This document shows positions 2,165 to 19,306 of a DNA stretch of 64,000 bases, one piece after another (position 1 is the first letter of the stretch; every line of letters begins with the position of its first letter). A model generated the notes under the pieces. The model ran no database searches. It was not told the origin of the DNA and saw nothing but the letters and a program-made list of their open reading frames with translations. The position numbers were made by a program, and so were the translations under genes. Source of the DNA: a virus. The stretch lies in IMG/VR virus record IMGVR_UViG_3300009000_000003, one strand, 5' to 3'.

Positions 2165-2445
2165 CCACTAATTCAGACTACTACAAGAAAAAGTATATTT
2201 CAACTTTTCTTGCAAATAAATTAAAATAACTTACAAGTAACCGTAATTACTGAAGATTATCTTAATTTAAAGTAGCCGAATCACCACTCTAGGCAAAGGT
2301 TTTAAGTTTTTTCTTTACCTTTAAGGCGCGGAAGAACAAAAGTGCGATTAGAGCTCTTAACAATTACTTTTCTAGGGGGTAAACACTTTTCTGTTTTTCC
2401 CCGAAAGCGTGATTAAGAACCCTAACTACACTTTTTTAGCGCGCC

Positions 2446-2637
2446 TCAAATATCTTTCCAGTTTTCCAGATCCTTACCAATAACCTTACCAGTAAAGATT
2501 GTACCTGATATTAAACCAAACAAGATGCTTAGCTTTATTATATCAGGGGAGAGCAACGTATCTCCAAGACCTACACCTGTAATGGTGAAACTTAGTATCA
2601 ACGAATAGCCAATAAATAAGTTCCACCCTACCAGCAT
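2446..2637 (-). CDS. Small membrane protein (two hydrophobic helices)
   Basis: ORF track; TAATG coupling to the upstream gene. Confidence 0.6.
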   Translation of the reverse strand: MLVGWNLFIGYSLILSFTITGVGLGDTLLSPDIIKLSILFGLISGTIFTGKVIGKDLENWKDI

Positions 2638-3212
2638 TACTTGTGCTTAACCTCGTACAAGGTGCCAGTGTGGTCTTCGTTCTGGATAAAGACAGCATAC
2701 TTACTATAAGTTTTAATCAGATAGTAAGTGTCTCCATTGGAGCTAACTGTTGCTTTGAGGAAAATTTGATCTGCGGCTCTCTGACAAGCAAGAAAGCTTT
2801 TTGCCTCGATTGCAGAATAATCTCTGCCTTGAGCGCAATCAATTTTCTTTATCATTTCGTTCAAAGGAGTTGGCGGCATTTTTAGCTGCTCTCTGAGAGC
2901 AGTGCGCAGGCGATGGTTCACTCTTTGCTCCCAATTTTCCTCCTCGTAGACTGCATCGTCCTCATCCTCGCACTCACGCTTGAACGCAAGGATGTTCTCC
3001 TTGATGTTTTTTTTAGCCTGGTTGACTCTCCTCATGGGGAAGGTTTCAACGGCATTGACGACATTAATCAAAAATGTTGCAACATCAGGATAGCAGGAGA
3101 TGATCTCCTGTGCGTTGCGATAGGCGAGGTTGAGTACACGAAGTGTTTCCTCATTGGTTTGTGGGTCCGCAATCTCTTCAAGGACGCTGCGAATTGTGTC
3201 AAATTTACTCAT
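2637..3212 (-). CDS. Hypothetical protein
   Basis: ORF 2637..3233; ATG at 3212 preceded by AAAGGAG. Confidence 0.7.
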   Translation of the reverse strand: MSKFDTIRSVLEEIADPQTNEETLRVLNLAYRNAQEIISCYPDVATFLINVVNAVETFPMRRVNQAKKNIKENILAFKRECEDEDDAVYEEENWEQRVNHRLRTALREQLKMPPTPLNEMIKKIDCAQGRDYSAIEAKSFLACQRAADQIFLKATVSSNGDTYYLIKTYSKYAVFIQNEDHTGTLYEVKHK

Positions 3213-3436
3213 TGGTGTGCTCCTTTCGAGCATCTTGCTACATATTCTTTAATGTAGCGGGGAGAAGTAAGCCTGGTTAGCATGATTGGCCAGGCAAGGA
3301 AAGTAAGAAGTGCGGCCATAATAATGCCCCAAACTCTAGTTGAAGTTGGAGCGTTCGCTACGATGAACTCCCAAGCGATGATGCTTGAGAAAACAACTGT
3401 GATGAAGAAAGAGATCTCAATGTACGCCGCGAACAT
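3209..3436 (-). CDS. Small membrane protein
   Basis: Two hydrophobic segments; ATG at 3436 coupled to the upstream stop. Confidence 0.6.
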   Translation of the reverse strand: MFAAYIEISFFITVVFSSIIAWEFIVANAPTSTRVWGIIMAALLTFLAWPIMLTRLTSPRYIKEYVARCSKGAHQ

Positions 3437-3726
3437 TATTTGTTCTCCGGACATACAAGATTGTACTCTTTGGTAGTCTGAAGCCACTCCCGCTTATAGC
3501 GGTAGACTGACTCGTAACAATTATACTTATCATCAGCGTTCTCGATGTCAAAACAAAGGTCCTCTAAGAGGTTAATGCTTTTGGCATTTTCTCTTAGATC
3601 CTCCCACAACTGAGAACAAGAAGGAGCTGGTGTGGGCTTAGCATCAGTCACAGCGCTCATGACGAGTAAAACTGTAACCACTGCAATCAATGAGGGCATC
3701 AACCACTCAAAAAGAAAATCTCTCAT
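3436..3726 (-). CDS. Membrane-anchored or secreted Cys-containing protein
   Basis: N-terminal hydrophobic helix, four Cys, GAGG RBS. Confidence 0.6.
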   Translation of the reverse strand: MRDFLFEWLMPSLIAVVTVLLVMSAVTDAKPTPAPSCSQLWEDLRENAKSINLLEDLCFDIENADDKYNCYESVYRYKREWLQTTKEYNLVCPENK

Positions 3727-3791
3727 TTTTTACCTCGCAACCAAGTTGAGGAAGGAAATTATGATAAGCATTGCAAAGAATTTATCTTCAT

Positions 3792-4154
3792 TCATTGCTC
3801 AGTTTTATCCCATTGCTGCTTCATCGCAGTAGCAACGTCTTTGACTGTAGCATGATCTTGATCTTGCAATTCCTCAATAGTCTCAGAAACTTTGTTTCGA
3901 ATGTCTTGAGATACACTTTGAACAAGTCTGTGAAACTTATTGTAGAGCTCTACGTTCAACACACAGAGTGAAGCTAGCGCCACGAATGGCACTAAGAATA
4001 TGTAGAAGAAGTAGTAGATCAAATCAAGTATTGGTGTATACTTGATTATCAAGAACAAGATCATCAGAGACAAGAAAATGCGAGCCCAAGGACCAATCGC
4101 ATCCAAGTCCCGTAGTGCCTGTTGCGTTAAGGCGTCTCTCTTGTCCTCAGCCAT
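3792..4154 (-). CDS. Membrane protein with C-terminal coiled coil
   Basis: Two TM-like segments. Confidence 0.65.
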   Translation of the reverse strand: MAEDKRDALTQQALRDLDAIGPWARIFLSLMILFLIIKYTPILDLIYYFFYIFLVPFVALASLCVLNVELYNKFHRLVQSVSQDIRNKVSETIEELQDQDHATVKDVATAMKQQWDKTEQ

Positions 4155-4563
4155 TGTTCTTTAACCCGGCTAAGAAGTTTTGGACCTCCTCATAATTGGA
4201 AGTCCCAATGTAGAGATGCACTCCCCGGTAACCGTTCACTTCCACCCGAGCATCGTAACGTATGTTAGCAGGAACACAGTTCTCTAACGCTTCAGCAAGA
4301 CGCTGGAAGATAGTCTCGTGGTCGTTGCTGCGACACATATTGCCGTATGTGACCGTACAGGGGATGTACTCCCCCTTACGTAAAGAGATCTTCCAGATGG
4401 ACTTAGTCCACCTGTAAAGCTGAAGGTGGGCCCTGACATCGGGATGGATCGCATCCCAAGTCTGCTGCACGTGGGTTGGGACCTCAGGTGAGGTCGTTGT
4501 TGTGGTTGCGGGTGCAGGCCGAACTACCTCGGCCACAAAGTTGTTTGTGCTGTTGTCAGACAT
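4147..4563 (-). CDS. Hypothetical protein
   Basis: ATG with TAAGGAG RBS. Confidence 0.7.
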   Translation of the reverse strand: MSDNSTNNFVAEVVRPAPATTTTTSPEVPTHVQQTWDAIHPDVRAHLQLYRWTKSIWKISLRKGEYIPCTVTYGNMCRSNDHETIFQRLAEALENCVPANIRYDARVEVNGYRGVHLYIGTSNYEEVQNFLAGLKNNG

Positions 4564-4648
4564 CTCGTCTCCTTAAAAAAGCACGTGTTAGGTAATGGTT
4601 GGACAATACCTTTGAATTAATTTTTTACAAGCTTCCAACTAGCTTATG

Positions 4649-4771
4649 AACCAACAAGTCAACACGACTCATCAGGCAGGTTTCCCTGCTAACAACCATT
4701 TACATGGAAAGCTTCGATTACTCTAAGCTTTTACGTTTTCGACCCCGCCGTAACGGTAGGTCTTGCTGGTT
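4649..4771 (-). ncRNA. Hammerhead ribozyme candidate (permuted), copy A
   Basis: Minus strand reads GACC..GGUC-GAAA-AC..GU-UA/GCAGG-GAAA-CCUGC-CUGAUGA. CUGAUGA is at 4675-4669 and GAAA at 4740-4737. Predicted cut between 4690 and 4689. Outer stem AACCAGCAA/UUGUUGGUU. Confidence 0.72.
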
Positions 4772-4786
4772 AATAGATGAAAGCAG

Positions 4787-5101
4787 TCAAGACCACCATC
4801 TTGACTTTTGTGGCACTGGTTTCTCCAACCAGTGCCGATCATCAATCGGCCACCATTCTGTTATTGGTTGGCGGCCTCCAACTAGTTCAGTTGAGCCTGC
4901 TATTGAGCTTTCAAGATGACTAAAGAAAACCACTTTAATGACTTCAAGCTTGCCGTCGACAAGCTTTGAAACCACTTCATGGTCATTGCTGATTTTTACC
5001 ACGTCGATAAGCTCCCCTTCTTTAATCCCTGTCTCACAGACAGGGCAGTCGGGGTGTTTTAGTTCGTCGTGAGTCGAGCAATAGTTTTTTTTTGCCATCA
5101 T
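4787..5101 (-). CDS. Hypothetical protein with CxxH..CxxC putative Zn site
   Basis: CSTH...CPVC near the N-terminus. Confidence 0.6.
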   Translation of the reverse strand: MMAKKNYCSTHDELKHPDCPVCETGIKEGELIDVVKISNDHEVVSKLVDGKLEVIKVVFFSHLESSIAGSTELVGGRQPITEWWPIDDRHWLEKPVPQKSRWWS

Positions 5102-5160
5102 CTTTTGCCTTTTAAATAGCAGACTTGCTGGTTAACTTGTTTTAACGGCCACGGTTACCT

Positions 5161-5203
5161 TGCTAACAACCATCCGCCGTAACGGTAGGTCTTGCTGGTC
5201 AAT
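5161..5203 (-). repeat. Partial duplicate of the copy-A ribozyme
   Basis: ccgccgtaacggtaggtcttgctggt is identical at 4745-4770 and 5174-5199; tgctaacaaccat at 4687-4699 and 5161-5173. Confidence 0.85.
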
Positions 5204-5204
5204 A

Positions 5205-5531
5205 TTATCGTCGCAGGCCCTTACAGCCTACGGGTTTTCCATTGTCGTCTCGGACAAGCTCCCCAGGTGAAGTGACGTCATAGCGAGTGCCTTGAAGGGC
5301 ACTCACGATGAGCCCTGACGTAATATAAATCACGTCATTCTGAGGTGCAGGGAGACCTTCGATCTCCCCATATGTTGCGGTGTAGATGTCAATGCCATCT
5401 ACGGTGCTATCGAGGTTGAAGGACGTAGCCACTCGGGCTACATCTCCCGATGGAGGGACGGAGATCACGCCGCTTTCCGCAGTGTGAATGTTGATGGTGT
5501 GAGGGGTAAGGTTGACAAAGTTTGTAGTCAT
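5205..5531 (-). CDS. Conserved phage hypothetical protein
   Basis: NLTPH..I...PPSG.VARV...GLP.P...SPG.LVRD..G.PVGC pattern recurs in phage proteins; AAGGAG RBS. Confidence 0.75.
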   Translation of the reverse strand: MTTNFVNLTPHTINIHTAESGVISVPPSGDVARVATSFNLDSTVDGIDIYTATYGEIEGLPAPQNDVIYITSGLIVSALQGTRYDVTSPGELVRDDNGKPVGCKGLRR

Positions 5532-5555
5532 GACGGCTCCTTTTTATTTTTTAAT

Positions 5556-5960
5556 CTACTGATAGATCACTTTCGTGACGCTATCAGTTTTGGCGGTGTT
5601 GGCCTTAAGGGCTGCTTTGCCTTCTTCTGTCGTTAGCCAACGACGCAGGATGGTCTCGCAATGGACTGCCTTAGCGCGGTCCAGTACGAGAATTTGGTGG
5701 TCGTCAGTTCCACTTTCCTCGTTAAGAGGAGTGAAGCTGACAACCAGCCCATTGGAGGCGATTGCCTCCAGCCTCCTCCTGACTGGGTTATGCACCCAGT
5801 CTAGGTAGAAAAATGGGTCTTCCCCTTCAAGGGGAGACCAGTCGCAAACTAAGATGGACTGGTGCCTGAGCACCAGTCCTGCTTGACCACCAACGTTATT
5901 TACGAGGTGGGAGTAGAGCGCCATAGCTGGCACCCAGTTGGGGATGTTGTGGGTGTTCAT
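5556..5960 (-). CDS. Hypothetical protein
   Basis: ATG with AAGGA RBS, coupled to the upstream gene. Confidence 0.7.
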   Translation of the reverse strand: MNTHNIPNWVPAMALYSHLVNNVGGQAGLVLRHQSILVCDWSPLEGEDPFFYLDWVHNPVRRRLEAIASNGLVVSFTPLNEESGTDDHQILVLDRAKAVHCETILRRWLTTEEGKAALKANTAKTDSVTKVIYQ

Positions 5961-5961
5961 T

Positions 5962-6201
5962 TTATTCCTTCTTGAGGATGAGGCTCAAGGCCTCTAACAA
6001 GGAGACGTACTCGACGTCTCTCTGCTGGATGAGGTGTTCGGGATCAAACACCTCTACTTCTCCGACATTAGACATGTTGAAGAGAAAAGAGATTGACCCT
6101 TGACCCACACGAATGGAGAGAGCATATTTGCCTTTCTCTACTTCGCATAGGTTTGAGGCCCCGAGCTCTTTTTGGAGCTCAAGGAGGATGGAGGAGATCA
6201 T
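5962..6201 (-). CDS. Hypothetical protein
   Basis: ORF 5962..6243; ATG at 6201 with AAGGAG RBS and ATGA overlap. Confidence 0.65.
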   Translation of the reverse strand: MISSILLELQKELGASNLCEVEKGKYALSIRVGQGSISFLFNMSNVGEVEVFDPEHLIQQRDVEYVSLLEALSLILKKE

Positions 6202-6701
6202 TTGATCTCCTTCGGGCTGAACGCCAAAGCGTTCTTTGACCACTCCCCCGAAGGGTCGTCATCAAACTTTGGCATGGATGGCCCGGAATGGACCGTCCAG
6301 ACCGTACCTCCGAAACAAATAACTGTTCCGGACTTAGTGCTGCGGAAGGGCTCATTCCGGACCACGATAGGCTGCGGAGGTCTCCCCTCCCCTCGAGAGA
6401 AGAGGGTGCGGGGCTCGGAGGATAAATCCTCTGAGCCCGTTTTGGGCCCCCAGAGGCGGGTGACCGCCTCACCTGCGAGGGGGTACTCATGCACCCCATC
6501 TGGGCAACCTTTGGCTGCCCACTGGTTGAGGAGGCTCCGAAGAGCTTCCTCGTTGAACTCGTCACAGTGCGTGACGAAGTGTCTGCTGCCCTCAGGGGGC
6601 AGGTTGATGTTGTGCTCAGCAAAGAAGCTGAGCAAGAAGGCCTCGTTAGCCGAGGCCATGTTTTTAAAAGGAGCCATTGCGGTTCCCTTTTCTCCCAACA
6701 A
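6198..6701 (-). CDS. Hypothetical protein
   Basis: ORF track; true start is probably a downstream ATG (MAPF or MASANE). Confidence 0.65.
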   Translation of the reverse strand: MLGEKGTAMAPFKNMASANEAFLLSFFAEHNINLPPEGSRHFVTHCDEFNEEALRSLLNQWAAKGCPDGVHEYPLAGEAVTRLWGPKTGSEDLSSEPRTLFSRGEGRPPQPIVVRNEPFRSTKSGTVICFGGTVWTVHSGPSMPKFDDDPSGEWSKNALAFSPKEIK

Positions 6702-6723
6702 GGGGTTTTGGGTTAATTGAAAG

Positions 6724-6797
6724 TGGGCCCTCTGGGGATTGAACCCAGGATCTCCGGTTTATGAGACCGGTGCCTTAACCAACTTGGCTAAAGGCCC
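6724..6797 (-). tRNA. tRNA-Ile2 (CAU; Met cannot be excluded)
   Basis: GGGCCUUUAGCCAAGUUGGUUAAGGC-ACCGGUCU-CAU-AAACCGG...GGUUCAAUCC..AGGGCCCA; acceptor stem resembles Ile2; no encoded CCA. Confidence 0.88.
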
Positions 6798-6808
6798 AAA
6801 TGTGAGAA

Positions 6809-6881
6809 TGGGTTGTCTGGGGCTCGAACCCAGGACCTACGGATTAAAAGTCCGCTGCTCTACCGACTGAGCTAACAACCC
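6809..6881 (-). tRNA. tRNA-Lys (UUU)
   Basis: GGGUUGUUAGCUCAGUCGGUAGAGCAGCGGACU-UUU-AAUCCG...GGUUCGAGCC..ACAACCCA. Confidence 0.95.
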
Positions 6882-6886
6882 AAAAA

Positions 6887-6960
<74 letters not shown>

Positions 6961-7096
6961 ATAAGCGCCCATTATTACGTCCGGAGCCAGACGCCTCTTT
7001 ACTATGCCACAACTTACACCACACATAGCAAAGAGAAGTTCCTCTCCTCCCGAAAGGAGTAAAAAGAGGAGAGGAGGGTGCTCCCCAACACCCGAG

Positions 7097-7178
7097 TACC
7101 GTCAGCCGGGATCGAACCGGCACACCCGAAGGCGGGAGATTTTAAGTCTCCTGTGTCTACCTATTCCACCATGACGGC
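7097..7178 (-). tRNA. tRNA-Leu (UAA)
   Basis: GCCGUCAUGGUGGAAUAGGUAGACACAGGAGACU-UAA-AAUCUCC, long variable arm, GGUUCGAUCC..UGACGGUA. Confidence 0.95.
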
Positions 7179-7216
7179 ATGGTGCTCCTGGTTAGGAGTG
7201 GGAGGGGGGCCAGAGG

Positions 7217-7411
7217 TTAATATATTTCCTCTGGCTCAAGGAATTTTTCTATCTCCCTAATGATAAAGGGGGCGATAAGAATGAATGTGATGATCCCCAA
7301 TAAAGGGGACCACATGGCTAGCTTGATCCAAGCGGCAAAAGCCGCGAGGGTCGTAAAGGCCGCTAATAGGACGAAGGTCACAAACGCGACCTCTTTGAGA
7401 TATCTTTGCAC
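7217..7411 (-). CDS. Small two-helix membrane protein
   Basis: GTG start with AAAGGAG RBS; hydrophobic. Confidence 0.65.
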   Translation of the reverse strand: MQRYLKEVAFVTFVLLAAFTTLAAFAAWIKLAMWSPLLGIITFILIAPFIIREIEKFLEPEEIY

Positions 7412-7460
7412 GAGTTACTCCTTTCGTGCAAGTAGGGGTAAGGTGGGGGAAGAGCCAGAA

Positions 7461-7580
7461 TTACTCTGACTCCTCCCAATCGAGGAGGCAGTTGTTGCAC
7501 TGCGCTCCCCAGACAATGGAGTTGAACGTGCGGCGGATGATCCAGAACCGCACGTTCAGACTGTGGCATTGTGGGCACAT
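7461..7580 (-). CDS. Small zinc-ribbon protein
   Basis: MCPQC...QCNNC; ATG at 7580 with GAGAGGA RBS. Confidence 0.6.
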   Translation of the reverse strand: MCPQCHSLNVRFWIIRRTFNSIVWGAQCNNCLLDWEESE

Positions 7581-7663
7581 AGTATTTCCTCTCATGTGCG
7601 ATAGAGGGTGTTGTAGACTGTTCAGCACATCAATTAATGATGCCCGCACTCACCATGGACGTC

Positions 7664-8391
7664 GAGGTCCTGGGGGAGGTCTGTCGAGTGCTTAGATTCC
7701 CTATTAAAACTCTTACAAGCTGCGGAGGCTTTTACTTACCCGGGATCCGCATTCTCCTAAATTACTTTAGAAGTTTCTGCCTTTTACGGCTTTGGTCATG
7801 TTGTAGACCACGGCTGCATTTCAGCTTTGCCGTTCTCCCTTGCCGCTTTTTCAGGCAATGATCTCGTCCCCCAACGCTCCTCTTGACATTTATAAAGGGA
7901 TTTCCTGTCAAGATTACTCTTTCGAGAGAGCGCAAGTTCCAACTCTTGCTATCAATCTAGGTGCTTTACGCACAACCTTTGAAAGGCGATTGACATTGCC
8001 CGTCCCCAACCTCGTGGAGGTGGTCCGTATCTGGGGACTTAGTGGTGCGGACCGGAAGGTTGCAATAGGGATAAAATCCTTATTACCCCTGGCTTCCCCT
8101 GGTACCACACCGGTGTGCAGTGCTCACTATAAAGACCAACTCCCACTGCACTTTGGGTTGGTCGGAGAGGGTGGTTGAAAAGTACTAGGCTGGGCTGATG
8201 CCCATTTAAACTGACCTAATATTTCCAACCCCCCTATAGAGAGATCGCTCTCTCCCATAAAAACATTATCTGCAATGCTTTTATGTTTTTGCTACTACAC
8301 TACAGAATAATCTGCAATGAGTAGCTTTGGTGCGGACGAGGTCTATTCCTCTTACGTCTTCCGACAGCCCGCAGCTCACCCCCAAGACCTC
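7664..8391 (-). ncRNA. Large (about 730 nt) highly structured, pseudoknotted non-coding RNA candidate
   Basis: A 13-bp terminal helix (8379-8391 with 7664-7676), three further long-range helices, two internal H-type pseudoknots and many local hairpins; no credible ORF. Confidence 0.72.
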
Positions 8392-8513
8392 TAACAGAGG
8401 TCCTGAGGAATTTAGAAGCTTTAAAACGTCTCCTTACTAGAGGTAAAACCTACTAGAAAGAAACGGTTGGACCAACCCCCGCCTGAGCGGGGAGGTCTGT
8501 CGGCGGACCCAGC

Positions 8514-8840
8514 TTAGCTCATGAGAGCCTTTAGCTGGCTCATCGGGTCGGTTTTAGCCGTCCACCCCGTGTTGGAGGTCGGGTCTTCGATCACAACGGT
8601 GATCTTCAGACCCTGGCTAGTCAGGGTCTGAACCTGAGCGTAGAGCTCGGGGCTCAACGCTGAGGTACGAATCTCAGCCTTGGACATTGTGCCCTTGGCC
8701 GATGTCGAGCTGTCAATGGACAGCTCTGAATCAAGGCCCTTAGCCGCGAGGGCAGCCGAGGCTGCGATTAAGGCAGCCTTGGAGTTAACAAATGCCCCCT
8801 CAATAAGAGGGGTGGGGGTGGGGGTGTTCTCGTTAGCCAT
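8514..8840 (-). CDS. Hypothetical protein
   Basis: ATG with strong TAAGGAG RBS; lies between the hairpin array and the large ncRNA. Confidence 0.8.
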   Translation of the reverse strand: MANENTPTPTPLIEGAFVNSKAALIAASAALAAKGLDSELSIDSSTSAKGTMSKAEIRTSALSPELYAQVQTLTSQGLKITVVIEDPTSNTGWTAKTDPMSQLKALMS

Positions 8841-8915
8841 GACGGCAACTCCTTATAGGAAGAGAAGGGAAAAGGAAGGTGTGTCTTGTGACTCACCACC
8901 ACTATCTCTCTTTCT

Positions 8916-9100
8916 GCCGTAGGCGTGCGTCAGCACACCCTCCGAAGGAGGGAGCCGTTAGGCATAGGGGCCGCTAGGCCCCCCGACAGGGCTCGCCCCT
9001 GTCGAAGACAGCCGTTAGGCGGCAACCGTTAGGTTGCTCCAGCGGAGCCGTTAGGCGGAGCGGAGTACGACGCCGCTAGGCGGAGTACGGGGAGCGGAGT
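8916..9100. repeat. Array of mini-hairpins with C-G(N)NA-G loops plus CGGAG repeats
   Basis: gcc-gta-ggc, gtgc-gtca-gcac, ccctcc-gaa-ggaggg, gcc-gtta-ggc (x3), ggggcc-gcta-ggcccc, gcaacc-gtta-ggttgc, cgcc-gcta-ggcg. Confidence 0.85.
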
Positions 9101-9147
9101 AATATCAGACGCAGCTGTCAAACATTACTATGAATATTTCTATGTTA

Positions 9148-9924
9148 TTAAGAATCATTCCACAGATCACCAAGATCAATTTGAATCTCATCGTCTAAAG
9201 TAGAAACATTGGAATCTGCACCTACAGCAGTATCAGAAACGGGTTCTACTTGAGCCTCAGAATTATCTTTAGGCTCAGAAGCCTTAGCCTCAATAAGCCT
9301 TACATAGATTGCCTTTTTATAAGCAACGCTCTTAAAGAGCCAAAAGCCCTCAGGACTAGTGACGTCTTTGAGTCGAGTAGTAGAAACTGACTCGTAGCCG
9401 TCAGGAACAGTAAAAGCTGTTCCAGCTGGATAAAACAGTGCCATCTTGAGAGGTGCCTTAAGCTGAAGCTTGCGTTTTACAGCATTGCCAAAGCTAGACA
9501 CAACTCTAGCGTTACCAAGCGAATCGTCTACTTGGCAGGATTGCTTAGCCCCAAGTAAAGGAGCAAACACCTGATTGATCCAAGTGTCTTTAACCAAAGT
9601 CCTATCTCCGTCAGCCCTTGCAGGCTCAGAAACCTTTACTGTTGAAGCTTTCTGAGTAGACGGCTTAGAATTCCCTGAGCTCCTACCAGAGCCCTTCTGA
9701 ACCATCTTACCAAAATTCACCACGACATGACTGCCACCAGAAACAGTCACATTCTGCCCAGCTTGAGGGTCTGGAACCTGTGTAGCTAACTGCTCGAGCA
9801 ACGCTGGCGAACCAGCTGCATAAGCAGCTTCAATCATACTAGAATAGCTGGAAGCCACAAGCATCAACTTAGCCTTAGCTGTATCGCTGATGGGAGCTGT
9901 GGCAATCATCATGTAAACATTCAT
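9148..9924 (-). CDS. Hypothetical protein with acidic C-terminal tail, coupled to the polymerase gene
   Basis: ATG at 9924 with GAGGAGG RBS, immediately after the polymerase stop; ends DDEIQIDLGDLWNDS. Confidence 0.75.
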   Translation of the reverse strand: MNVYMMIATAPISDTAKAKLMLVASSYSSMIEAAYAAGSPALLEQLATQVPDPQAGQNVTVSGGSHVVVNFGKMVQKGSGRSSGNSKPSTQKASTVKVSEPARADGDRTLVKDTWINQVFAPLLGAKQSCQVDDSLGNARVVSSFGNAVKRKLQLKAPLKMALFYPAGTAFTVPDGYESVSTTRLKDVTSPEGFWLFKSVAYKKAIYVRLIEAKASEPKDNSEAQVEPVSDTAVGADSNVSTLDDEIQIDLGDLWNDS

Positions 9925-9925
9925 T

Positions 9926-12900
9926 TTAGCAACCCTCCTCAGTAGTTGCAACGTCGATCAAAGCAATCAACGCTTGGGGAGAAGGCAACTTGACATTAAT
10001 CTCGTCGCCCAACCTAAAGAAACGCCTCAACGCGCTAGGCGTCTTAGCACCAAGACGACTCGAATGCTCTTGGAAGTTAGAGAGAACATAAGAGTCAAAG
10101 GCTGAAGTAAAGTGCATCAGCCCGATGACAAACTCTGCCACCACCTCGTACGGGACTGTCAGCTCATAAAGCGAAACTGTCAATCCGTCAGAAGCAGTAA
10201 GAGCTGCCTTGATGTCTTGAAGGATATGATACGGCGCCTTGACGCCATTAACCTTCGAGACAAAAGGTGTGCAGATGCTATTGCGCACATAAGACGCAAC
10301 AGGTGCCGAGTCAAACACCTCAACCTCACCACCGCTCTTAAAGACGTATTGACGAGGAGCCTCTGCGTCAAGATCGTGGTAAGTAGCAAGCTGATCGCCA
10401 GAAGACCACAGAATATTCCCAAACGAATCTGAGAACGGTGAAGGTAGAATCTTCATATAGGCGGTCTCACCGTTAAGCTTAACCATCTTACTACAAGGGT
10501 TCCGGCTTGGGTGCCGACTACCATTGCCAGACTCCGCTACGAGCTCAGCAAAGGCCTCGAGGCCGCTACCCTCGAACTTGCTCTTCCTTGAAAAGGAAGC
10601 ACCTGAGATGTCCTCGAAAAGCCTGAAGCGGCGATCCTTAAGCGCATCCTCGGTGTAGCGATACTCATTACCATCCTTGACGAAGGTAGTCTGGTCATTG
10701 AGTGCCGCCATAATAAACCGCCAGATAGGACGGTAAGCAGACACCCTGTGCCCAAACGGGCTGTTGATGTCAGCCTTAAATGAGCCACCCCAGTGATACG
10801 GTACTACCGTGCCCTGGGTAATCAGGGCGTTCCCGTCCTCCTGGTTAACGAGCTTATGGTCGAGCCTGACTAAAGCGCCAGTCTCAACCATATTGAGCTT
10901 GTGCTCCAAGTACTTCTTCACCATCTCGAGCTTTTCAGTGTCTTCCTTGAACACTGCCTTAAGCACGGCTGGATGACTGTAGAGCTTCAACTCAGTAGCC
11001 GAGTAACAGTGACCGATGCCGAAACCAGTCTCAAGCTCAAGCATTACCTGCATCCTACCAGGGAGGAAAGCACCAAGGCGCTCCTCTAAGCGATACTGAA
11101 CGCCAGAGTGAAGCACCCAGCGCTTAGTGGTGCGAGTCACATCACCAAGCGTCTTATTCTTGCGCACATAAATGTTACGCACTGGCTGCAACAAGTACAG
11201 CGAGCCATGCTCCAACATAGCGGCTGCCATGTTGACGATGATGCTCGAGCTGACAGGGTAGTCAACACGGCCTCGAAGCGTATGGAACTTCTTGACTGTG
11301 TCAATCCCGTTAGAGTCAACACCCTCGACAACCCTAGTGTGAACCATGTAACTGGCCACTCGAGCAGAAAGCTCTTCGCCAGTCAGCTGACCACCCTGCT
11401 GGGTCTTGATGAGAGCACTGAGACGCATCGCTTGCATAATGGGGGCGCCCGCCTGGATAACCTCACGGATACTAGGCAAGAGATCGCGCTCCTTCAACGC
11501 GCCCAACATGTAAGCAGTCAAATTTGGCTTATCGTCCTGCTTGACCTTAACAAACTCATCATCAGACTTGAACAGATCAGCGTTATCAAGAAGATAACTA
11601 CTCAAGAGCTCCTGATAGAATTCCTGAGTGTAACTCTCGAAGCAGTCAGCCTGCACCGCGAGCAACAGCTTGTCAATGCCGCTGCTTTCAACAAAGTAGC
11701 GGTGCTTAACATCAGACGTCTCAACAACCTCTGCTTGTACAGCGATCGCTGGATAGACGTCTGACCAGAGCCACTCTGGCCAAATGTCCTTGGTGTTGTC
11801 AGCAAGGAGCTTGTTGACGTCTACCATGACCTTACTTGCAGTCACCTGCCCGACGTTAGTGACATTAAGTAGGTCACTAAAGGAAACAGGGTGCTGCCTC
11901 TCATAGGCCGCCACAAGCGCTGCTTTGAGGCTCTCCCAAGTAGCTTGGGCTTTTGACCCATTACCTACAACAGGGAAAACCGCCAGAAGGCGACTCAAGA
12001 AGGTCTCATCGCCCGACTCGTCCGAGTTCAAGCTGTTGCGAGCAACTTCGACCTCATCCGAATTGACAGCCAGCTTCATAGCAAGCCAGTCAAGTGGTGA
12101 TCGAGCCATAAGATACTGCTCATAGCCGAAGACTCCCCACGCGTGGAAAAACAGCTCAGAGAGCATCTCGAGAGATTCTCTCTTAGAACCATCCCCGTAC
12201 TGAGGCTTAAAGGCTCGAAGAGCTGCCTTGTAGACAACACTTTGATTCTCAGTGTCATCAAACATCTCAAGGGCCTGTTTAAGCTTATCAAGCATGTCAT
12301 TGGCGTCATTATCGCCACGAGCATTAAAATACTCGCTTTGAGCCATGCTAGCGTACTCACCGGCCTTGACTTGCTTGTAATAGCTAAACCACTTCTGAAG
12401 GAAGTGATAAGCACTGCTTGCAGCATTCGCTTTCTTAGGGTCAGCGAAAGCAATCGCATAGTGCTCATGGATTGCCCTTAGAGGCTGCCCCGTGATTCCA
12501 AGGTCACACTTGACAGCCTGATTTTCCTCGACAGTCCACTCAGACATGAGCTTCGCGGCTGGAGGTGCATCGCGAAGAGGCACCTCTAGGGAAGTCTCTT
12601 TGATCCAAGCGTAGGCTCGCTCAGGAAAGACCCATGAGTTCTCAATGGCTTTAATCTCTCGATCATCACCAAGAATCTCCTTGATCTTCTCCCACATCGG
12701 TTTCAGGTCATCCGCGTTAGCAGTAGCCATCGCCTCCGAGATCGCCTCCATCTTGCTAGCCCAGTCATCAGCTGATGGGAACTGGTACCCAGCATTGATG
12801 AAGTTAATGGCCCAACAGACGAAGAGCTTGAGCACTCCGACGTTGTACTGCTCGTCAACAGAGAGACGAGTGTGCACATTCGCTCCAGGATTCTCGGGAG

Positions 12901-15142
12901 CAATCTCCATACGTGGGAAGCTCTCGTCCATGGTAGCGACGACATAATCTTTGTCGCTGACAATAGCTCTTTCGAAGATAGCATCGGAGAGCTGAAGCCA
13001 GCAGAGCAGTGACGCTACCGCTGCTGGTTTTTTGGTGCGGTCGATGCTATTCTGCACCAAGAAGCACAAGAAGGCATAAAACTTTAACGCCCACTCCCTT
13101 ACCCGAGGATCTGGTCCCCAAGCTCCATTTGTGTCCCGCCATACGATGTGGGCAAGCACAGCAGAGCACAGGTTGACTAGAGTCCCTGTAGGCCCTTGGC
13201 CTTGATTTGGGGCACAAATAAAATTGGCCACCTCGGCCTTTGTTACCCCATCGGGGATCTCAAAACAAGGAGCATCAAGAACCTTGAGGTTTCCGTCCTT
13301 GCGTGAGTCCCTGTGATTAACCTCAATCTTTGGGACAGGGAGGTTCCGAGTAGCCTCCTCGTGAATTTTAACAGCGCGAACACGCCAAGCCTCTTTCTCT
13401 ACGAGCAAGCGGTCGCCGTCAGAGTCTCGTTGGAGGCGGTCTTGGGCCTGCTTGCTCATCCAAATGAGATTTGGACTTGCCTCGAGGCTAATCCAAATTG
13501 CTCTGAGGCGCAGATAAACCGCTTCATTAAGGGCAAAGGCCGTGCTCTCGCTGCCTATCTCCTTGTAGATGAAGGAGCAAAGGTCCCCGTAGAACTGCTG
13601 TCCCTGACGAGACAGCTCCCCTGAATCATGCTCAAGGCCAAAATAGACCTTCTTTGCAAAATCAAAGACCTTGGTCAAAGACTTGTGAGTTATCACAGCC
13701 TGCGTGATGAGGCAAGCGTGGTAGAGCTGAGGCTGGCCTGTAACAGCAACAGCATCAAACTCAACGCCCTCAATCGATACTTTCTCGGTCTTCTTTGGCA
13801 TCTTTTTAAGGATACAGTAGTCCGAAGGCATTGAAATCTGATCGCAGTACATGGTCTTAACCTTGTGGCCCTGGCCGTACACTGTGTGCGCGACCTTGCC
13901 TGGGCTAATAGCTCCAAGGCTGGCAGCCGAAGCCTTGAGAGCATCGACATTCTCTGCGCCCTCAAAGAGCTTCTCGACAATTGGATTGTCAAGCTCATAG
14001 AGACGCTCAAGCGAGCTGCGGATTGCTCCACGGAACTCATTCTCTTGGAGCAGCAAAGCACCAGCAGAACGAATAATAGCGTCCTGCCATGCTACCGACG
14101 AGCTTCCTTGAGGATTGTCCTCGGCAATCACGCCACCTGTGAAGAGGCGATGATCGTGACCCACCGTTGGAGCGTAGCAATCAAACCACCACTCTTGCAG
14201 GTCAATGATCTCGAGCCCTTGAAGGGCCTCACCCTTAGCCTCCACAGCATCTTTCAACGACCCCTTAACGTTGTCGTAGTGGATGAAGAAGGCGTCGACA
14301 GTCTCGTCAGGAGACTGACCCTTGAGATCGCGGTACTTGATCTCGTCAGGGGTGAGTTTGAGCCACCGATCCCCATACCTGACCGCCTGGGTGCAGGTGG
14401 CGTGGGCCTTACCCTTAGCCTGGAAGCCAGGAGCGACATTGCCCTCAGCATCCTCAACCAACGGCGTGTGCACGCGAATCTGGAAGATCGGGTGCCCAGC
14501 GCCTAGGTTTAAGCCCATAGAGTACTCGTTTCCTCCATCAGCTCCAACCTGACCTTGGTTCTCGATGTTGGTCAGGAAGTACCTGACGCGGTTTCCATCA
14601 AGATCTCGGTTGAGGCCCGAGGTAAACGGCGTCGTTGCCATACCACGACTACGAGCCCTGAGCTCTTTGTTCGTGGCAAATACGCTCTTGAGCCACTTAG
14701 CGTATGGCATCAAGTTGCCATCCTCATCCCGCTCCTTAACGAAGAAGCCAGGAGTAACAGGGCTAAAGCCAAGTTGAGCTGTAACTCGATTGAGCACAGC
14801 TACGTCAACCTGACGCCCCTTCTCGTCCTTGAGGTTTTGGACAAACAAGACGTCATCATACGCCACCTCAAGTTTATCCTGCCCAAGCGACTCGCGCCAC
14901 TCATTGAGCTGGTCAAGGCTCTGCTTGAAAGCAGAAGCCCACTGGTGCTCTGCCACAAAGGCCTGCTTGAGCACCTGCCCATGAGGCTCATCGCCCTCAG
15001 CCCACCCCAAGAAGTCCTTATCAGACGTGGGGAAAAGCTTAAGGGTTAAATAGTTCTCAGCCATAGCTGAGCTCTTGACTTGCTTTTTCAGCGAGTCCAT
15101 GAGCTTCCTGCCAAGCTGAATCTTCTTCTTAATAGAACTCAT
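9926..15142 (-). CDS. Putative single-subunit two-barrel RNA polymerase (YonO / eukaryotic RdRP-like)
   Basis: Ordered motifs GADGGNEYS (DGxG-like), IFQIR, AKG, VAVTGQPQL (RNP-equivalent position) and RDSDGD (DxDGD at 13426-13412). Confidence 0.72.
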   Translation of the reverse strand: MSSIKKKIQLGRKLMDSLKKQVKSSAMAENYLTLKLFPTSDKDFLGWAEGDEPHGQVLKQAFVAEHQWASAFKQSLDQLNEWRESLGQDKLEVAYDDVLFVQNLKDEKGRQVDVAVLNRVTAQLGFSPVTPGFFVKERDEDGNLMPYAKWLKSVFATNKELRARSRGMATTPFTSGLNRDLDGNRVRYFLTNIENQGQVGADGGNEYSMGLNLGAGHPIFQIRVHTPLVEDAEGNVAPGFQAKGKAHATCTQAVRYGDRWLKLTPDEIKYRDLKGQSPDETVDAFFIHYDNVKGSLKDAVEAKGEALQGLEIIDLQEWWFDCYAPTVGHDHRLFTGGVIAEDNPQGSSSVAWQDAIIRSAGALLLQENEFRGAIRSSLERLYELDNPIVEKLFEGAENVDALKASAASLGAISPGKVAHTVYGQGHKVKTMYCDQISMPSDYCILKKMPKKTEKVSIEGVEFDAVAVTGQPQLYHACLITQAVITHKSLTKVFDFAKKVYFGLEHDSGELSRQGQQFYGDLCSFIYKEIGSESTAFALNEAVYLRLRAIWISLEASPNLIWMSKQAQDRLQRDSDGDRLLVEKEAWRVRAVKIHEEATRNLPVPKIEVNHRDSRKDGNLKVLDAPCFEIPDGVTKAEVANFICAPNQGQGPTGTLVNLCSAVLAHIVWRDTNGAWGPDPRVREWALKFYAFLCFLVQNSIDRTKKPAAVASLLCWLQLSDAIFERAIVSDKDYVVATMDESFPRMEIAPENPGANVHTRLSVDEQYNVGVLKLFVCWAINFINAGYQFPSADDWASKMEAISEAMATANADDLKPMWEKIKEILGDDREIKAIENSWVFPERAYAWIKETSLEVPLRDAPPAAKLMSEWTVEENQAVKCDLGITGQPLRAIHEHYAIAFADPKKANAASSAYHFLQKWFSYYKQVKAGEYASMAQSEYFNARGDNDANDMLDKLKQALEMFDDTENQSVVYKAALRAFKPQYGDGSKRESLEMLSELFFHAWGVFGYEQYLMARSPLDWLAMKLAVNSDEVEVARNSLNSDESGDETFLSRLLAVFPVVGNGSKAQATWESLKAALVAAYERQHPVSFSDLLNVTNVGQVTASKVMVDVNKLLADNTKDIWPEWLWSDVYPAIAVQAEVVETSDVKHRYFVESSGIDKLLLAVQADCFESYTQEFYQELLSSYLLDNADLFKSDDEFVKVKQDDKPNLTAYMLGALKERDLLPSIREVIQAGAPIMQAMRLSALIKTQQGGQLTGEELSARVASYMVHTRVVEGVDSNGIDTVKKFHTLRGRVDYPVSSSIIVNMAAAMLEHGSLYLLQPVRNIYVRKNKTLGDVTRTTKRWVLHSGVQYRLEERLGAFLPGRMQVMLELETGFGIGHCYSATELKLYSHPAVLKAVFKEDTEKLEMVKKYLEHKLNMVETGALVRLDHKLVNQEDGNALITQGTVVPYHWGGSFKADINSPFGHRVSAYRPIWRFIMAALNDQTTFVKDGNEYRYTEDALKDRRFRLFEDISGASFSRKSKFEGSGLEAFAELVAESGNGSRHPSRNPCSKMVKLNGETAYMKILPSPFSDSFGNILWSSGDQLATYHDLDAEAPRQYVFKSGGEVEVFDSAPVASYVRNSICTPFVSKVNGVKAPYHILQDIKAALTASDGLTVSLYELTVPYEVVAEFVIGLMHFTSAFDSYVLSNFQEHSSRLGAKTPSALRRFFRLGDEINVKLPSPQALIALIDVATTEEGC

Positions 15143-15570
15143 TTCTGAGTCCTCCCTTCTGCGTCAAAAAGACGCTTTATGAGGTCGTTAACCTCATTGT
15201 TGTAAGTCTCTGGGTCTGAGATCACCCTCAACTCATTCAGTTCCGTGAGGAACCACTGCCACTCGGTGACAATCTGACAGGTCAAGGGATCCTGATAAAC
15301 GGGCCTCACAAACTTCTCAAACGAGTAGTCCCTCACACAATAAGTCTGCGAGAGCTCCTCAGCCAACTGGGGATTGGCGAAGATCACTAAGGCGTCCTCA
15401 AACTGCCTGGTCAACGCTGCCTTGACTTTGAGGGCCACCGTCTTGTTGAGAAGGCGGCAGTCGTGCCAAGCTGGCTCGATCTTATTTGTCTTGGGGTTGC
15501 GATACAACCCCTCGACGTTGTCGTACCAAGACAATGTGAGCTTTAAAATTTGCTGGATGCGGATGTTCAT
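15139..15570 (-). CDS. Hypothetical protein immediately upstream of the polymerase
   Basis: ORF 15139..15660; ATG at 15570 follows the upstream stop; ATGA overlap with the polymerase start. Confidence 0.7.
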   Translation of the reverse strand: MNIRIQQILKLTLSWYDNVEGLYRNPKTNKIEPAWHDCRLLNKTVALKVKAALTRQFEDALVIFANPQLAEELSQTYCVRDYSFEKFVRPVYQDPLTCQIVTEWQWFLTELNELRVISDPETYNNEVNDLIKRLFDAEGRTQK

Positions 15571-15571
15571 C

Positions 15572-16246
15572 TTAGCACCCCCACCCAAGCTCAATGCTGT
15601 TAAACTCGATACTCTGTTGAGCGTTGATGATGAGTCTTTGCAGACTCGCCATGCGATCAACTACCTTCCCGATCTCTCGGAAGAAGTAGTCGTTCGCGGC
15701 CTCAGAGGCCTGGGAGAAGGCCTCCATCAACCTCTGCTCCTTAGCAGCGAGGTTGATCATCACCCGCTCTGCCTTCTTGAGGAAAGCCGCGGCTCCCTCT
15801 AGGGCGGGAGTGGTGAGGCTCCGAACTGCCTTAGCAGCAGCTCGGATAGCCTGTTTGTTGTGGCTCGCCTTACGGAGAGTCACAGGGCGCTCGGCCCGCC
15901 GAGCCTGGCGGATGGCCTCGCGGTGAGCATGACGCTCTGCACGCAGGGCCTTGGCCTCGGCACGACGCGCCTCACGGAGCGCAGCCTGCTCCTCAGCGCG
16001 CGCTTGCCCCTCACTCCGTGCCTTGGCCTTCGCCTTCGCCTTCGCTGCAGCCTTAGCCTCTTTAGCGGCCTTGACAGCCGCTAGCTCTTGATGGCCGAGA
16101 GCAATAAGCTCCCGGCGATTTTTGTTACGGCGCTTCCGCGAAGCGCCGCCGATCCTGACCAGCAGGCTATACTTAGCCTTCTGGTTATTAGAGGCGTTGC
16201 GCTTGTCATTGCGCTCGCCCGATGGCTTATTAGTTGCCTTTTTCAT
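15572..16246 (-). CDS. Highly basic Ala/Arg/Lys-rich helical protein (possible nucleic-acid binding)
   Basis: ATG at 16246 with AAGGAG RBS; AKAKAKAK and RRxxR repeats. Confidence 0.75.
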   Translation of the reverse strand: MKKATNKPSGERNDKRNASNNQKAKYSLLVRIGGASRKRRNKNRRELIALGHQELAAVKAAKEAKAAAKAKAKAKARSEGQARAEEQAALREARRAEAKALRAERHAHREAIRQARRAERPVTLRKASHNKQAIRAAAKAVRSLTTPALEGAAAFLKKAERVMINLAAKEQRLMEAFSQASEAANDYFFREIGKVVDRMASLQRLIINAQQSIEFNSIELGWGC

Positions 16247-16537
16247 GATAAACTCCTTTTCATGAATGGCGGGTTGTGGAGCCAATTGGGGAGGGCTCCG
16301 GGGAAGTGTGTCATCTTTGTTGACACGAACAAGGTCATAGCGACCACATGTGCAGTTTGAGGTTACACAGAAGCCATAACTACAAAAAGGCTACTGTGGG
16401 GTGCGGTTCTCTGCTTCACCTATCCCAGCTATAAGCTTTCGAGGGAGCGGCAGAATTGACCACACTAACTGCTTATAAAGCAGCTATGTGGCAATGGTTC
16501 AGGTGTTTATAGAGGTTGCCTGAAACCTCTAGCGGGG

Positions 16538-17305
16538 TCAGAAAAGGTAATGGGTGTGAAGATCAAAGATTTCTTTGACCTTATTGCCATACCTGTACGC
16601 ACCCATCCCACCGCCATTGTAGCGGTAAAATAAATACGTATCGACCTTCTTCGCTCCCCGTTTCACTGGCTTGAGCCAGTGGTCTGGGTTGTAAAGATCG
16701 ACTTTTTTAAAGTCTCTTTCCAACCCGTTGTACCACCGACTCTCTAGCCAGAGGCGCTGGTACCTAAACGCATTCTCAAACGATGCGTTTAAAGTGGCGC
16801 AAGAGGCAAGGCGCCCTCCTGCGTCCTCACCTCTAGTGTCCACCTGGGTAAGGCCACAGGCTTGGACAGGAGACATGTATATCTCCTTCTCCCACATCTG
16901 ATGGGCAGACTTGACCTTGCCCTGTGAAAGCTTGTGGCTGTGACCCTCACTAAAGCCACACCCTGTCTCTTTGAGACAGAGGGCAAGAGCGAGGCGTTGG
17001 ACTTCGCTTGGGGCATCGCCCCAAACTTCTTGGAATGCTTGAGCTATGCGTTCAAGCCGATCAGGGTATTGCTTAAGGCGCTTAGTCCCCATGGAGGTAG
17101 AACGATAAAAGCTCCTAATAGAAGCCTTTACCCCTGCCTTGACCGCTAACCTCTTAAAGAGGCGGCTCTCCGCCTCCCAAACCCGAGCTGTTTCCAGCTC
17201 AAGCAGGGTAGGTCCCTCTTGCTCAACTAAGAGAGGCTGTACCTCAGTTAAGGTGCAGGCAGAAAGGAAAAGGAAAAGAATTGTTGACATGATGAGCTTA
17301 GTCAT
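16538..17305 (-). CDS. Lipoprotein with lysozyme-like / lytic transglycosylase fold
   Basis: Lipobox FLSAC after a hydrophobic leader; LKET (catalytic Glu candidate), ACGLTQV and YNGG...Y match SLT motifs I-III; ATG at 17305 with GAAGGAG RBS. Confidence 0.65.
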   Translation of the reverse strand: MTKLIMSTILFLFLSACTLTEVQPLLVEQEGPTLLELETARVWEAESRLFKRLAVKAGVKASIRSFYRSTSMGTKRLKQYPDRLERIAQAFQEVWGDAPSEVQRLALALCLKETGCGFSEGHSHKLSQGKVKSAHQMWEKEIYMSPVQACGLTQVDTRGEDAGGRLASCATLNASFENAFRYQRLWLESRWYNGLERDFKKVDLYNPDHWLKPVKRGAKKVDTYLFYRYNGGGMGAYRYGNKVKEIFDLHTHYLF

Positions 17306-17354
17306 TGCGACTGCTCCTTCTGCAGTAAAAGACACTGCGGCTGTTCTGATAAAT

Positions 17355-17470
17355 CCCCTTGATCATCAGGCGAGATTCCTCGCGAGCTTTTACGCAGGGC
17401 CTTGGGCCTCTGCAACCTCCCCTAAGGGAGGTTAGCTTTCGACCAGGACGCTAAGCGCCCTGGTCAGGGG
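17355..17470 (-). ncRNA. Hammerhead ribozyme candidate (permuted), copy B
   Basis: Minus strand reads CCCCU-GACCAGGGCGC-UUA-GCGUCCUGGUC-GAAA-GCU..AGC-UC/GCGAG-GAAU-CUCGC-CUGAUGA-UCA-AGGGG. Predicted cut between 17384 and 17383. Confidence 0.75.
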
Positions 17471-17474
17471 GTGG

Positions 17475-18152
17475 TTAGTCAAACCAATTAGGAATTGGGT
17501 CACCTCTCCAGTCCCAATCCCTAGGGAAAAGAGATTGCGCCATCGACTTGGCGCTGTCATAGCCCATGCGTCGAGCATACTTCTCTTCCTTTCCCAGACT
17601 GAGGGCTTTGAGGAGGCAAATCCAAGCTTCAAAGCCTTTTGGCTCCTGAGGGTTTGGAAATGACAATCCATAACGAATTGCCATCAAAGCCCCCCTCGCC
17701 TCAAGTCTTGAGGCTTTCCAGGAATCGTCATCAATAATGACAATTCCCCTACTCAAGACTTCTTCAAGAAGTCCGGGAAAGGAACAAACCTCCCCTTCTA
17801 GGTCCATCCAGACCTGGTTGATATTAAGGTCTCTGGACCAATAGTAGTCTAGCTCGTACCCTTGTGGGTACACCTCAATGTCAAAGCCTTGGCCTTCGAA
17901 GGCCTCGAGGAGGCTTTGAACCTCTTTGGAAGGCTCGAAAACGAGCTGGCCCCCCAAGGTATAGATCTCCTCGAAATAACTCTCAGGGAGCCACCAGAGG
18001 AAATCCACATCTAGTGGTACCTCCTCATAAGCAAGGTTATGCTTTTTGAAGAAAGCATTCCTTGCTACCCCTCTCTTAAAACCCAAAGTACCAAAAGGCA
18101 CTTTGGGAATATTTGTTGTTGTTGTTGTTGTTGTTGTAATGAAGTAACGCAT
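17475..18152 (-). CDS. Hypothetical protein, first gene of the GC-rich island; N-terminal poly-Thr
   Basis: ATG with GAAAGGA RBS; (ACA)n microsatellite at about 18113-18137. Confidence 0.75.
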   Translation of the reverse strand: MRYFITTTTTTTTNIPKVPFGTLGFKRGVARNAFFKKHNLAYEEVPLDVDFLWWLPESYFEEIYTLGGQLVFEPSKEVQSLLEAFEGQGFDIEVYPQGYELDYYWSRDLNINQVWMDLEGEVCSFPGLLEEVLSRGIVIIDDDSWKASRLEARGALMAIRYGLSFPNPQEPKGFEAWICLLKALSLGKEEKYARRMGYDSAKSMAQSLFPRDWDWRGDPIPNWFD

Positions 18153-18256
18153 TGTTTTGTCCTTTCGACAAGTGGGTTAGCGTTGAATTAAAGCAACGTT
18201 GGCACCCCGGGTGGGCACCCAACTATTACATTGCTAAAACTTCAATAATAAAAATA

Positions 18257-18538: not shown

Positions 18539-19306
18539 TTACAATATGCAATTTTTTGGATTGATAATATCAAACATTACTTTTACAGAATCGTCTAACC
18601 AATTAAAATTAGAGCTATTAAAATCAAAATCTACAGTATGTAAAATCTGCGGAGAATAATCATTTACTGACCATATATTTTGCTGTGTTTTAAAACTAAA
18701 CATAGTGCTATTCAATTCAGATTCTATTAATCTGTTTTCAACAGGCACTTTAAATTTATCTAATTCAAGTTTTAAACAACCATCCATGCCTGACATTTTG
18801 TTATAACCAAATACATCTCTAGGTAAAGCTTGTAATGCTTGTTTAGTATATATTCGACCAGCGCCTAATCCATGTGTAACCAACCCATGCTCAGGTAAAT
18901 ACCCTACAAAATGTTTTATTGTTTTTGTAAAAGAGTCGTACATATACATGTTTTTAATAGAAGCCCAATAACCATTTTCATGCGCTACCTTGATGCAAGT
19001 TAAAATTAAATTTAAAGGCATAAAATCATCAGAACCAAGCCATAATAAAAAGTCAACATTTCTAATTTTAGCTTGGTTGTATATATGGTTATTTTTATTC
19101 GAAAGTATATTAGGCATTTCGTAAAATTCGACATTATTAAATTTTTCAATAACATCTCTCTCAATTTTACTACTACCTACAACTAGATACTCTACTTGAA
19201 AACCTCTTTTATTTAATTCTGGGATTATATATTTGGTCATATAATAAGTATGCACTCTAAGCACATTGGGTCTTTTCCAAGCAGGAAGTCCGATCATTAT
19301 TTTCAT
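18539..19306 (-). CDS. Glycosyltransferase (GT-A fold)
   Basis: IGLPAWKR...K.N...DFLLWLGSDDF...GAGR. Confidence 0.75.
   Translation of the reverse strand: MKIMIGLPAWKRPNVLRVHTYYMTKYIIPELNKRGFQVEYLVVGSSKIERDVIEKFNNVEFYEMPNILSNKNNHIYNQAKIRNVDFLLWLGSDDFMPLNLILTCIKVAHENGYWASIKNMYMYDSFTKTIKHFVGYLPEHGLVTHGLGAGRIYTKQALQALPRDVFGYNKMSGMDGCLKLELDKFKVPVENRLIESELNSTMFSFKTQQNIWSVNDYSPQILHTVDFDFNSSNFNWLDDSVKVMFDIINPKNCIL

Follow-up and report, generated by a model that had tools for sequence, protein, structure and literature searches.

A candidate hammerhead ribozyme with its core opened between A9 and G10.1 in an uncultured phage lineage

Analysis of a 64,000-nt stretch of viral DNA (IMG/VR record IMGVR_UViG_3300009000_000003, here called the window) revealed a hammerhead candidate on the minus strand at positions 4649 to 4771 (copy A), in which stems I, II and III are all closed and the strand ends enter through an outer helix, P0. 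We read it as an active hammerhead, circularly permuted so that the chain opens between A9 and G10.1, which cuts early mRNA between positions 4690 and 4689. No cleavage or expression data are available, and we put the probability of this reading at roughly two in three. The conserved structure of the copy A family is real, although it is so far restricted to one uncultured phage lineage and its activity is unproven. Copy A lies between two early genes, has a full set of catalytic bases and, in our reading, opens its chain at a backbone link that published hammerheads keep unbroken. Because this layout is maintained across about nine phages of the lineage, we regard it as probably a new variant that works (cutting is untested).

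Architecture of copies A and B

Every element that the initial annotation had named in copy A was recovered at its position on the minus strand. The description of the fold held for stems I to III, the core and the outer helix, but it had overlooked a hairpin, P4, between A9 and P0. From 5' to 3', the 9-nt P0 5' strand (4763 to 4771) directly adjoins G10.1 and pairs with the P0 3' strand (4649 to 4657) in 9 bp, including one G-U. Stem II is a closed hairpin (4741 to 4762; G10.1 = 4762, C11.1 = 4741) consisting of 5 bp, a 1x2 internal loop, 3 bp and a UUA loop. It is followed by GAAA (G12-A13-A14-A15.1, 4737 to 4740), as read from the sequence, and by stem III (4691 to 4737), which comprises 4 bp (A15.1-U16.1 plus 3 bp) and branches into two hairpins (4731 to 4708 and 4707 to 4696), the content of these branches being free to vary among relatives. 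The cleavage site, inferred from the hammerhead consensus, is predicted 3' of A17 (4690) in the triplet UUA, i.e., at 4689 to 4690. Stem I (4676 to 4689; 5 bp with a GAAA loop), the core segment CUGAUGA (C3 to A9, 4669 to 4675, with G5 = 4673, G8 = 4670 and A9 = 4669) and P4 (4658 to 4668), an 11-nt hairpin of 3 bp that starts with G right after A9, complete the structure. The result is a five-way junction of P0, II, III, I and P4, closed by P0, with a full core (C3-U4-G5-A6-N7-G8-A9, G12-A13-A14, A15.1-U16.1 and NUH). In the favoured fold, G10.1 sits 93 nt upstream of A9, far beyond the 1 to 2 nt at most that Block C allows between them, and with the core held open C11.1 pairs upstream with P = 0.99.

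A second copy in the window, put forward together with copy A, turned out to be real, as judged by the same topology, a strict descriptor match and a competent fold that is the minimum free energy (MFE) structure (z = -5.77). This copy B (17355 to 17470, minus strand; predicted cut 17384/17383) is 54% identical to copy A, has a P0 of 5 bp and a 3-nt linker instead of P4, and carries U after A9. Its cleavage triplet (17384) is CUC here and CUA in near-identical strains (L016:2030, L017:2254), both of which are permissive. The minus strand also carries a decayed partial copy (5161 to 5204), a 31-nt direct repeat of P0 and part of stem II joined to a cleavage-site segment, with neither GAAA nor CUGANGA; the repeat itself (5174 to 5204) was considered as "copy B" and rejected for lack of a core. 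A third, isolated fragment of the P0 5' strand lies at 5124 to 5135 (minus strand).

A strict descriptor, requiring at least 5 bp each in stem I, stem II and P0, matched twice in the window (copies A and B) and four times in 4340 local dinucleotide shuffles of it (555 Mb), giving an expectation of about 0.001 matches per window. The copy A region folds with z = -3.37. As the initial annotation had anticipated, standard Rfam hammerhead models miss copy A: at gathering score, Rfam 15 returned four tRNAs only and no hammerhead over the whole window, and at E <= 10 over 4400 to 5400 nothing hammerhead-like was found, only noise. Accordingly, a match of at least 37 bits to RF02276 at copy A was absent even at E <= 10 in that interval. 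No match to RF03152 was obtained either; one additional search was also blank but weak, as its control gave no signal.

Related ribozymes and competing folds

Related contigs were found via homologs of a 1738-aa protein encoded in the window, and DNA patterns added two records. The related phages contain 24 distinct hammerhead cores, all intergenic (no ORF of at least 60 aa spans a core) and most located 23 to 227 nt downstream of a stop codon; every one has C or A at position 17. The number of copies per relative is one to six; the gene boundaries at which they lie vary, and many of them surround a single small gene. Thirteen of the 24 sequences, from about nine phages of one lineage, share the form of copy A and are 36 to 90% identical.

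A MAFFT alignment of five A-type copies was misaligned, and the consensus fold that RNAalifold derived from it sequesters the core; a block-wise comparison of the 13 sequences was therefore used instead, and no covariance model was built. In this block alignment, stems I, II and III adjoin the core with covariation. C11.1 pairs with the upstream G with P >= 0.94 in 11 members, 0.71 in one and 0.31 in L006, where stem II itself is branched. Position 2 of stem II is paired throughout (A-U in five, G-C in five, C-G in two, G-U in one), and the orthologous L006 copy shows a change from A-U to G-C at this position relative to copy A. P0 measures 5 to 12 bp, with three to five pair types at each of its positions 1 to 5, and adjoins stem II without a gap in 12 of 13 members. 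The segment after A9 is a G-starting hairpin in seven, a C-starting hairpin in three (among them L020 and L025) and a 3-nt linker in three (copy B and two others); the nucleotide after A9 is G in eight members and U or C in the remaining five. Flank shuffling gave p = 0.0007 to 0.03 for 11 members (0.015 for copy A) and 0.06 to 0.08 for two. In the copy A ortholog L006:11828-12046, stems II and III are expanded into multi-hairpin domains (about 220 nt), with core, P4 and P0 kept.

Both the members and their helices were picked with our own descriptor, the helices by maximal pairing and with G required at 10.1, so that the paired percentages are partly circular, and all 13 members come from one phage lineage. 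The non-circular evidence consists of the pyrimidine after A9 in five members, the variety of pair types, the precision of the register and the replacement of A-U in copy A by G-C in L006. The proposal that the strand ends enter between A9 and G10.1 was upheld by the closed upstream stem II in all 13 sequences, the covariation at position 2 and those pyrimidines.

Beyond this lineage, blastn against 50,697 phage records gave only short, weak matches with E of 3 or worse. Scans of IMG/VR with DNA patterns for other lineages returned chance matches plus one known relative and three records of the same lineage; the patterns were narrow, so that these results do not rule out the form in other lineages. 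The more distant polymerase loci L015, L022 to L024 and L105, which were partially covered, yielded no hammerhead core.

The remaining 11 cores (positions of C3: L007:2805, 9731 and 12273; L010:7196; L021:4277, 5651, 6591 and 7439; L067:2231; L076:15799; L077:5577) all have G after A9 and, 1 to 2 nt upstream of C11.1, a hairpin that in many cases combines a palindromic 6-bp stem with a loop of 9 to 10 nt; they show no consistent P0. All those in loci scanned against Rfam stayed below cut-off, the best scoring 25.8 bits on RF02276 (cut-off 37). From their sequences, we read them as type II hammerheads whose one-pair stem II would stack on the upstream hairpin; they are possibly a variant in their own right. 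L007:1719 combines the hairpin and loop I of this group with P0 and thereby links both groups. By inference, the opened-core form most likely arose from one-pair type II copies coexisting in the same phages.

The P4 hairpin of copy A begins with G, and this is the main source of a rival reading, in which copy A is an ordinary type II hammerhead: G4668 would pair with C4741, stem II would be reduced to one pair (or to G-C, U-U and C-G) with a branched domain, and P0 and the hairpins would be peripheral. The GSC block order, the G after A9 in copy A and seven further members, and the fit of all eleven sister ribozymes agree with this, and natural type II hammerheads are known whose stem II has a single pair or a U10.1-U11.1 mismatch (Perreault et al. 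2011, PMC3088659). However, with the core held open, the closed-stem-II fold of copy A (-38.3 kcal/mol) beats the forced type II fold (-30.5) by 7.8 kcal/mol, a stem II of the open kind has P < 0.01, and in five other members tested the closed fold wins by 3.3 to 8.5 kcal/mol. The type II pairing works at position 1 in eight members and at position 2 in only two; position 2 is mismatched (U-U or U-C) in all A-type orthologs, whose upstream pairing is intact and includes the compensatory change in L006, and no standard pair is possible where U or C follows A9, which is the case in five members. The loop I/3'-tail pseudoknot that most type II hammerheads have is missing as well, a search for at least 4 bp finding at most 2 bp in copy A and 4 bp in one of 24 sequences, where it overlaps P0. 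We consider the type II reading unlikely, although copy A, taken alone, could still adopt a type II fold whose stem II is a single pair. The break might also be placed elsewhere, with P4 as the functional stem II of copy A, the A9-G10.1 link intact and the chain opened between C11.1 and G12, as another stacking conformer. The A-type P4 does start with G-C, has 3 to 4 bp like natural stem II and is kept in six orthologs; yet its first pair is C-G in three members and three others lack it, whereas a helix lies next to GAAA in 13 of 13, which makes this placement highly improbable.

The fold could be real and selected and still cleave very slowly or conditionally, with a mispaired, extended stem I that is freed by a ribosome or protein, or it could serve only as a structured spacer or stabiliser. 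The nearest-neighbour MFE of copy A (-43.0 kcal/mol) lies 4.7 kcal/mol below the competent fold and pairs the 3' strand of stem III with CUGAUGA; such mispairing of the core recurs in L016, L008, L009 and L021:4778, and the alignment consensus fold behaves alike. There is no evident loop-loop contact, and a decayed copy lies 430 nt away. UUA is a weaker cleavage triplet than GUC, and published data show weakness for AUA and GUA. On the other hand, these folding models ignore the non-canonical pairs of the hammerhead core, copy B, L020:7604 and L025 have the competent fold as their MFE structure, and a perfect core consensus with NUH (H = C or A) in 24 divergent sequences suggests selection for the chemistry, even if these features were also search criteria. 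A structure without efficient cleavage keeps only a small share of our belief. Finally, hammerhead cores are short, and a loose descriptor match at 19032, inside an AT-rich gene, was rejected as probably a chance arrangement of motifs; to explain copy A in the same way is scarcely credible given about 0.001 expected strict matches against two observed and the covarying orthologs. The opened-core hammerhead remains our preferred reading.

Genome context and proposed role

The window is part of the genome of a large tailed phage, encoding a tail sheath and a major head protein; the capsid protein is at most 27% identical to those of Acinetobacter phage ME3 and Bacillus phage 0305phi8-36. Copies A and B are found in a region of about 16 kb with a raised GC content, in which their strand also carries small genes, four tRNA genes (6724 to 7178, minus strand) between the two ribozymes, and the 1738-aa protein (9926 to 15142, minus strand). 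The latter has no Pfam or PHROG match and a conserved DSDGD motif, invariant in 15 homologs, all from metagenome or sequencing-run assemblies; this motif would fit a single-subunit two-barrel RNA polymerase. GTDB genome contigs contained no relative of this putative polymerase and hence pointed to no host. At the place corresponding to the tRNA genes, L006 has five. Many contigs with a polymerase homolog are 14.3 to 14.8 kb long, about the size of the GC-rich island (window about 2400-18200, P0003-P0014). This suggests that the region assembles separately, e.g., as a long terminal repeat, for which there is no direct evidence. HDV-like ribozyme matches (RF02682, 27 to 37 bits, cut-off 44) were observed in the same early region of related phages (L007:11288-11356, L007:12828-12906 and L014:10768-10842).

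Copy A is flanked upstream by an ORF of 104 aa (4787 to 5101, minus strand) and downstream by an ORF of 138 aa and unknown function (4147 to 4563, minus strand) with an AAGGAG ribosome-binding site. Copy A stands 45 nt after a stop codon, measured to C11.1, and 94 nt ahead of the next ribosome-binding site. A segment of 429 nt in the window (4776 to 5204), which carries the 104-aa gene and is bounded by the 31-nt direct repeat of the ribozyme 5' part, has no counterpart in the near-identical L016 and L018. The core-less copy at 5161 to 5204 is accordingly a scar left when a gene was gained or lost at the ribozyme, and ribozyme copies seem to mark points of such events. Copies A and B might be imagined as the boundaries of a dedicated 12.7-kb circular RNA; we did not adopt this idea, on the indirect grounds that copies in relatives number one to six and sit at varying boundaries.

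The mechanism we propose is deduced from the predicted fold. Stem II, as a closed hairpin upstream of GAAA, would supply the G10.1-C11.1 pair, and the backbone link from A9 to G10.1 would be replaced by the P4 hairpin or a 3-nt linker plus P0, which carries the strand ends. We infer that stem II stacks on the sheared A9-G12 pair and P4 on P0, and that P0 takes over from the covalent link in keeping A9 close to G10.1. Because the phosphate of the A9-phosphate/G10.1-N7 metal site lies 5' of A9, this site would presumably survive the opening. G12 acts as the general base in hammerheads. Together with G12, G8 is a functional residue, its 2'-OH serving as general acid (PMC11300833). The upstream product is predicted to end in a 2',3'-cyclic phosphate at 4690, and the downstream one to begin with a 5'-OH at 4689.

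In the phage, the ribozyme may cut the polycistronic early transcript between the stop codon and the next ribosome-binding site, which would leave the 138-aa ORF with a 126-nt 5'-OH leader. After the cut, P0 alone would join the products, and the downstream message would start with a 5'-OH hairpin. Clustered intergenic phage hammerheads cleave polycistronic RNA (PMC3088659). A base-paired contact between stem/loop I and stem/loop II was sought and none was found; the C-G at position 3 of stem II (12 of 13 members) could be an A-minor receptor for loop I, which is an inference. With no tertiary contact of loop I identified and no type II pseudoknot, the rate at physiological Mg2+ may be low. 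We regard only tentatively, at somewhat less than even odds, the further-reaching reading of a fast natural hammerhead opened in the core at A9/G10.1, outside the six-type scheme, in which the P0/P4 junction replaces the loop-loop contact or works as a switch, and in which the same phages still record the evolutionary route from one-pair type II.

Relation to known hammerheads

Judged by its sequence, copy A has the GSC order of a type II-like permutation in which "Block C" is split. The claim that it fits none of types I, II or III was sustained: stems I and III, of which types I and III leave one open, are both closed in copy A, and an open stem II is disfavoured. The label of a "fourth topology," in turn, is out of date, as the pseudoknot hammerhead and the non-circular permutations SGC, CSG and GCS have already been published. 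The SGC, CSG and GCS orders with crossing stems do not apply to copy A, whose order is G, S, C and whose fold is nested. According to Eckert et al. 2023, no insertion of more than 1 to 2 nt next to CUGAnGA is known, and Block C is assumed to be indivisible; the separation of G10.1 from A9 in copy A would break this assumption (PMC10085705). A literature search, which left most subscription papers outside its coverage, yielded no description of a hammerhead opened at A9/G10.1.

The current permutation scheme thus takes CUGAnGA to be inseparable from the neighbouring paired bases (PMC10085705), and the covariance models tested miss copy A. If our reading is true, hammerheads are undercounted in phages, and nature provides a way to ask if the A9-G10.1 link, and the metal site close to it, depend on covalent continuity. 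It would also provide a scaffold with three preformed stems and P0 joining the products, a feature that switchable or trans-acting designs could use as a handle. Neither the chemistry nor the probable role in processing mRNA between phage genes is novel.

The pseudoknot hammerhead, or RAGATH-1, reportedly goes back to Weinberg 2015. Like copy A, it has a remodelled helix II region and an extra helix, but its helix II is replaced by a pseudoknot from the helix IV loop, whereas helix II of copy A is an ordinary hairpin without a pseudoknot (RF03152; PMC11300833). The SGC, CSG and GCS types are likewise natural rewirings with an unchanged core (PMC10085705); they leave all three blocks intact and are pseudoknotted, whereas copy A is fully nested with Block C split. 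The segment from A9 to G12 is known to be plastic, as seen in the A10 insertion, in minizymes and miniribozymes with their linkers or single pairs (PMC544870) and in the pseudoknot hammerhead, a very fast ribozyme (PMC11300833). The precedent of the extra A10 in a viroid hammerhead had been cited correctly: the CChMVd (+) hammerhead has this insertion at the A9/G10.1 link and stays active (De la Pena and Flores 2001, via PMC3705267 and PMC1636495). There, a single nucleotide is inserted; in copy A the site holds a hairpin or linker and an open helix, and the chain starts and ends at the link. Engineered minizymes and miniribozymes also show tolerance of changed connectivity from A9 to G12 and need no more than one G10.1-C11.1 pair, but they are artificial, retain a continuous A9-to-G12 strand and are usually slower (PMC544870). 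Closest to copy A is the order of type II (GSC; RF02276; PMC3088659), with which it shares the succession of GAAA, cleavage site and CUGANGA, the closed stems I and III, the intergenic location in phage operons with several copies per genome, and an intact core consensus. In type II, stem II is formed by the two ends, whereas in copy A it is closed upstream of GAAA, G10.1 is unlinked to A9, the ends meet in P0, and both the loop I/3'-tail pseudoknot and an Rfam match are lacking. What appears new, on a topology reading that is supported by the sequence comparison, is a hammerhead whose core is opened at A9/G10.1, within a known ribozyme class.
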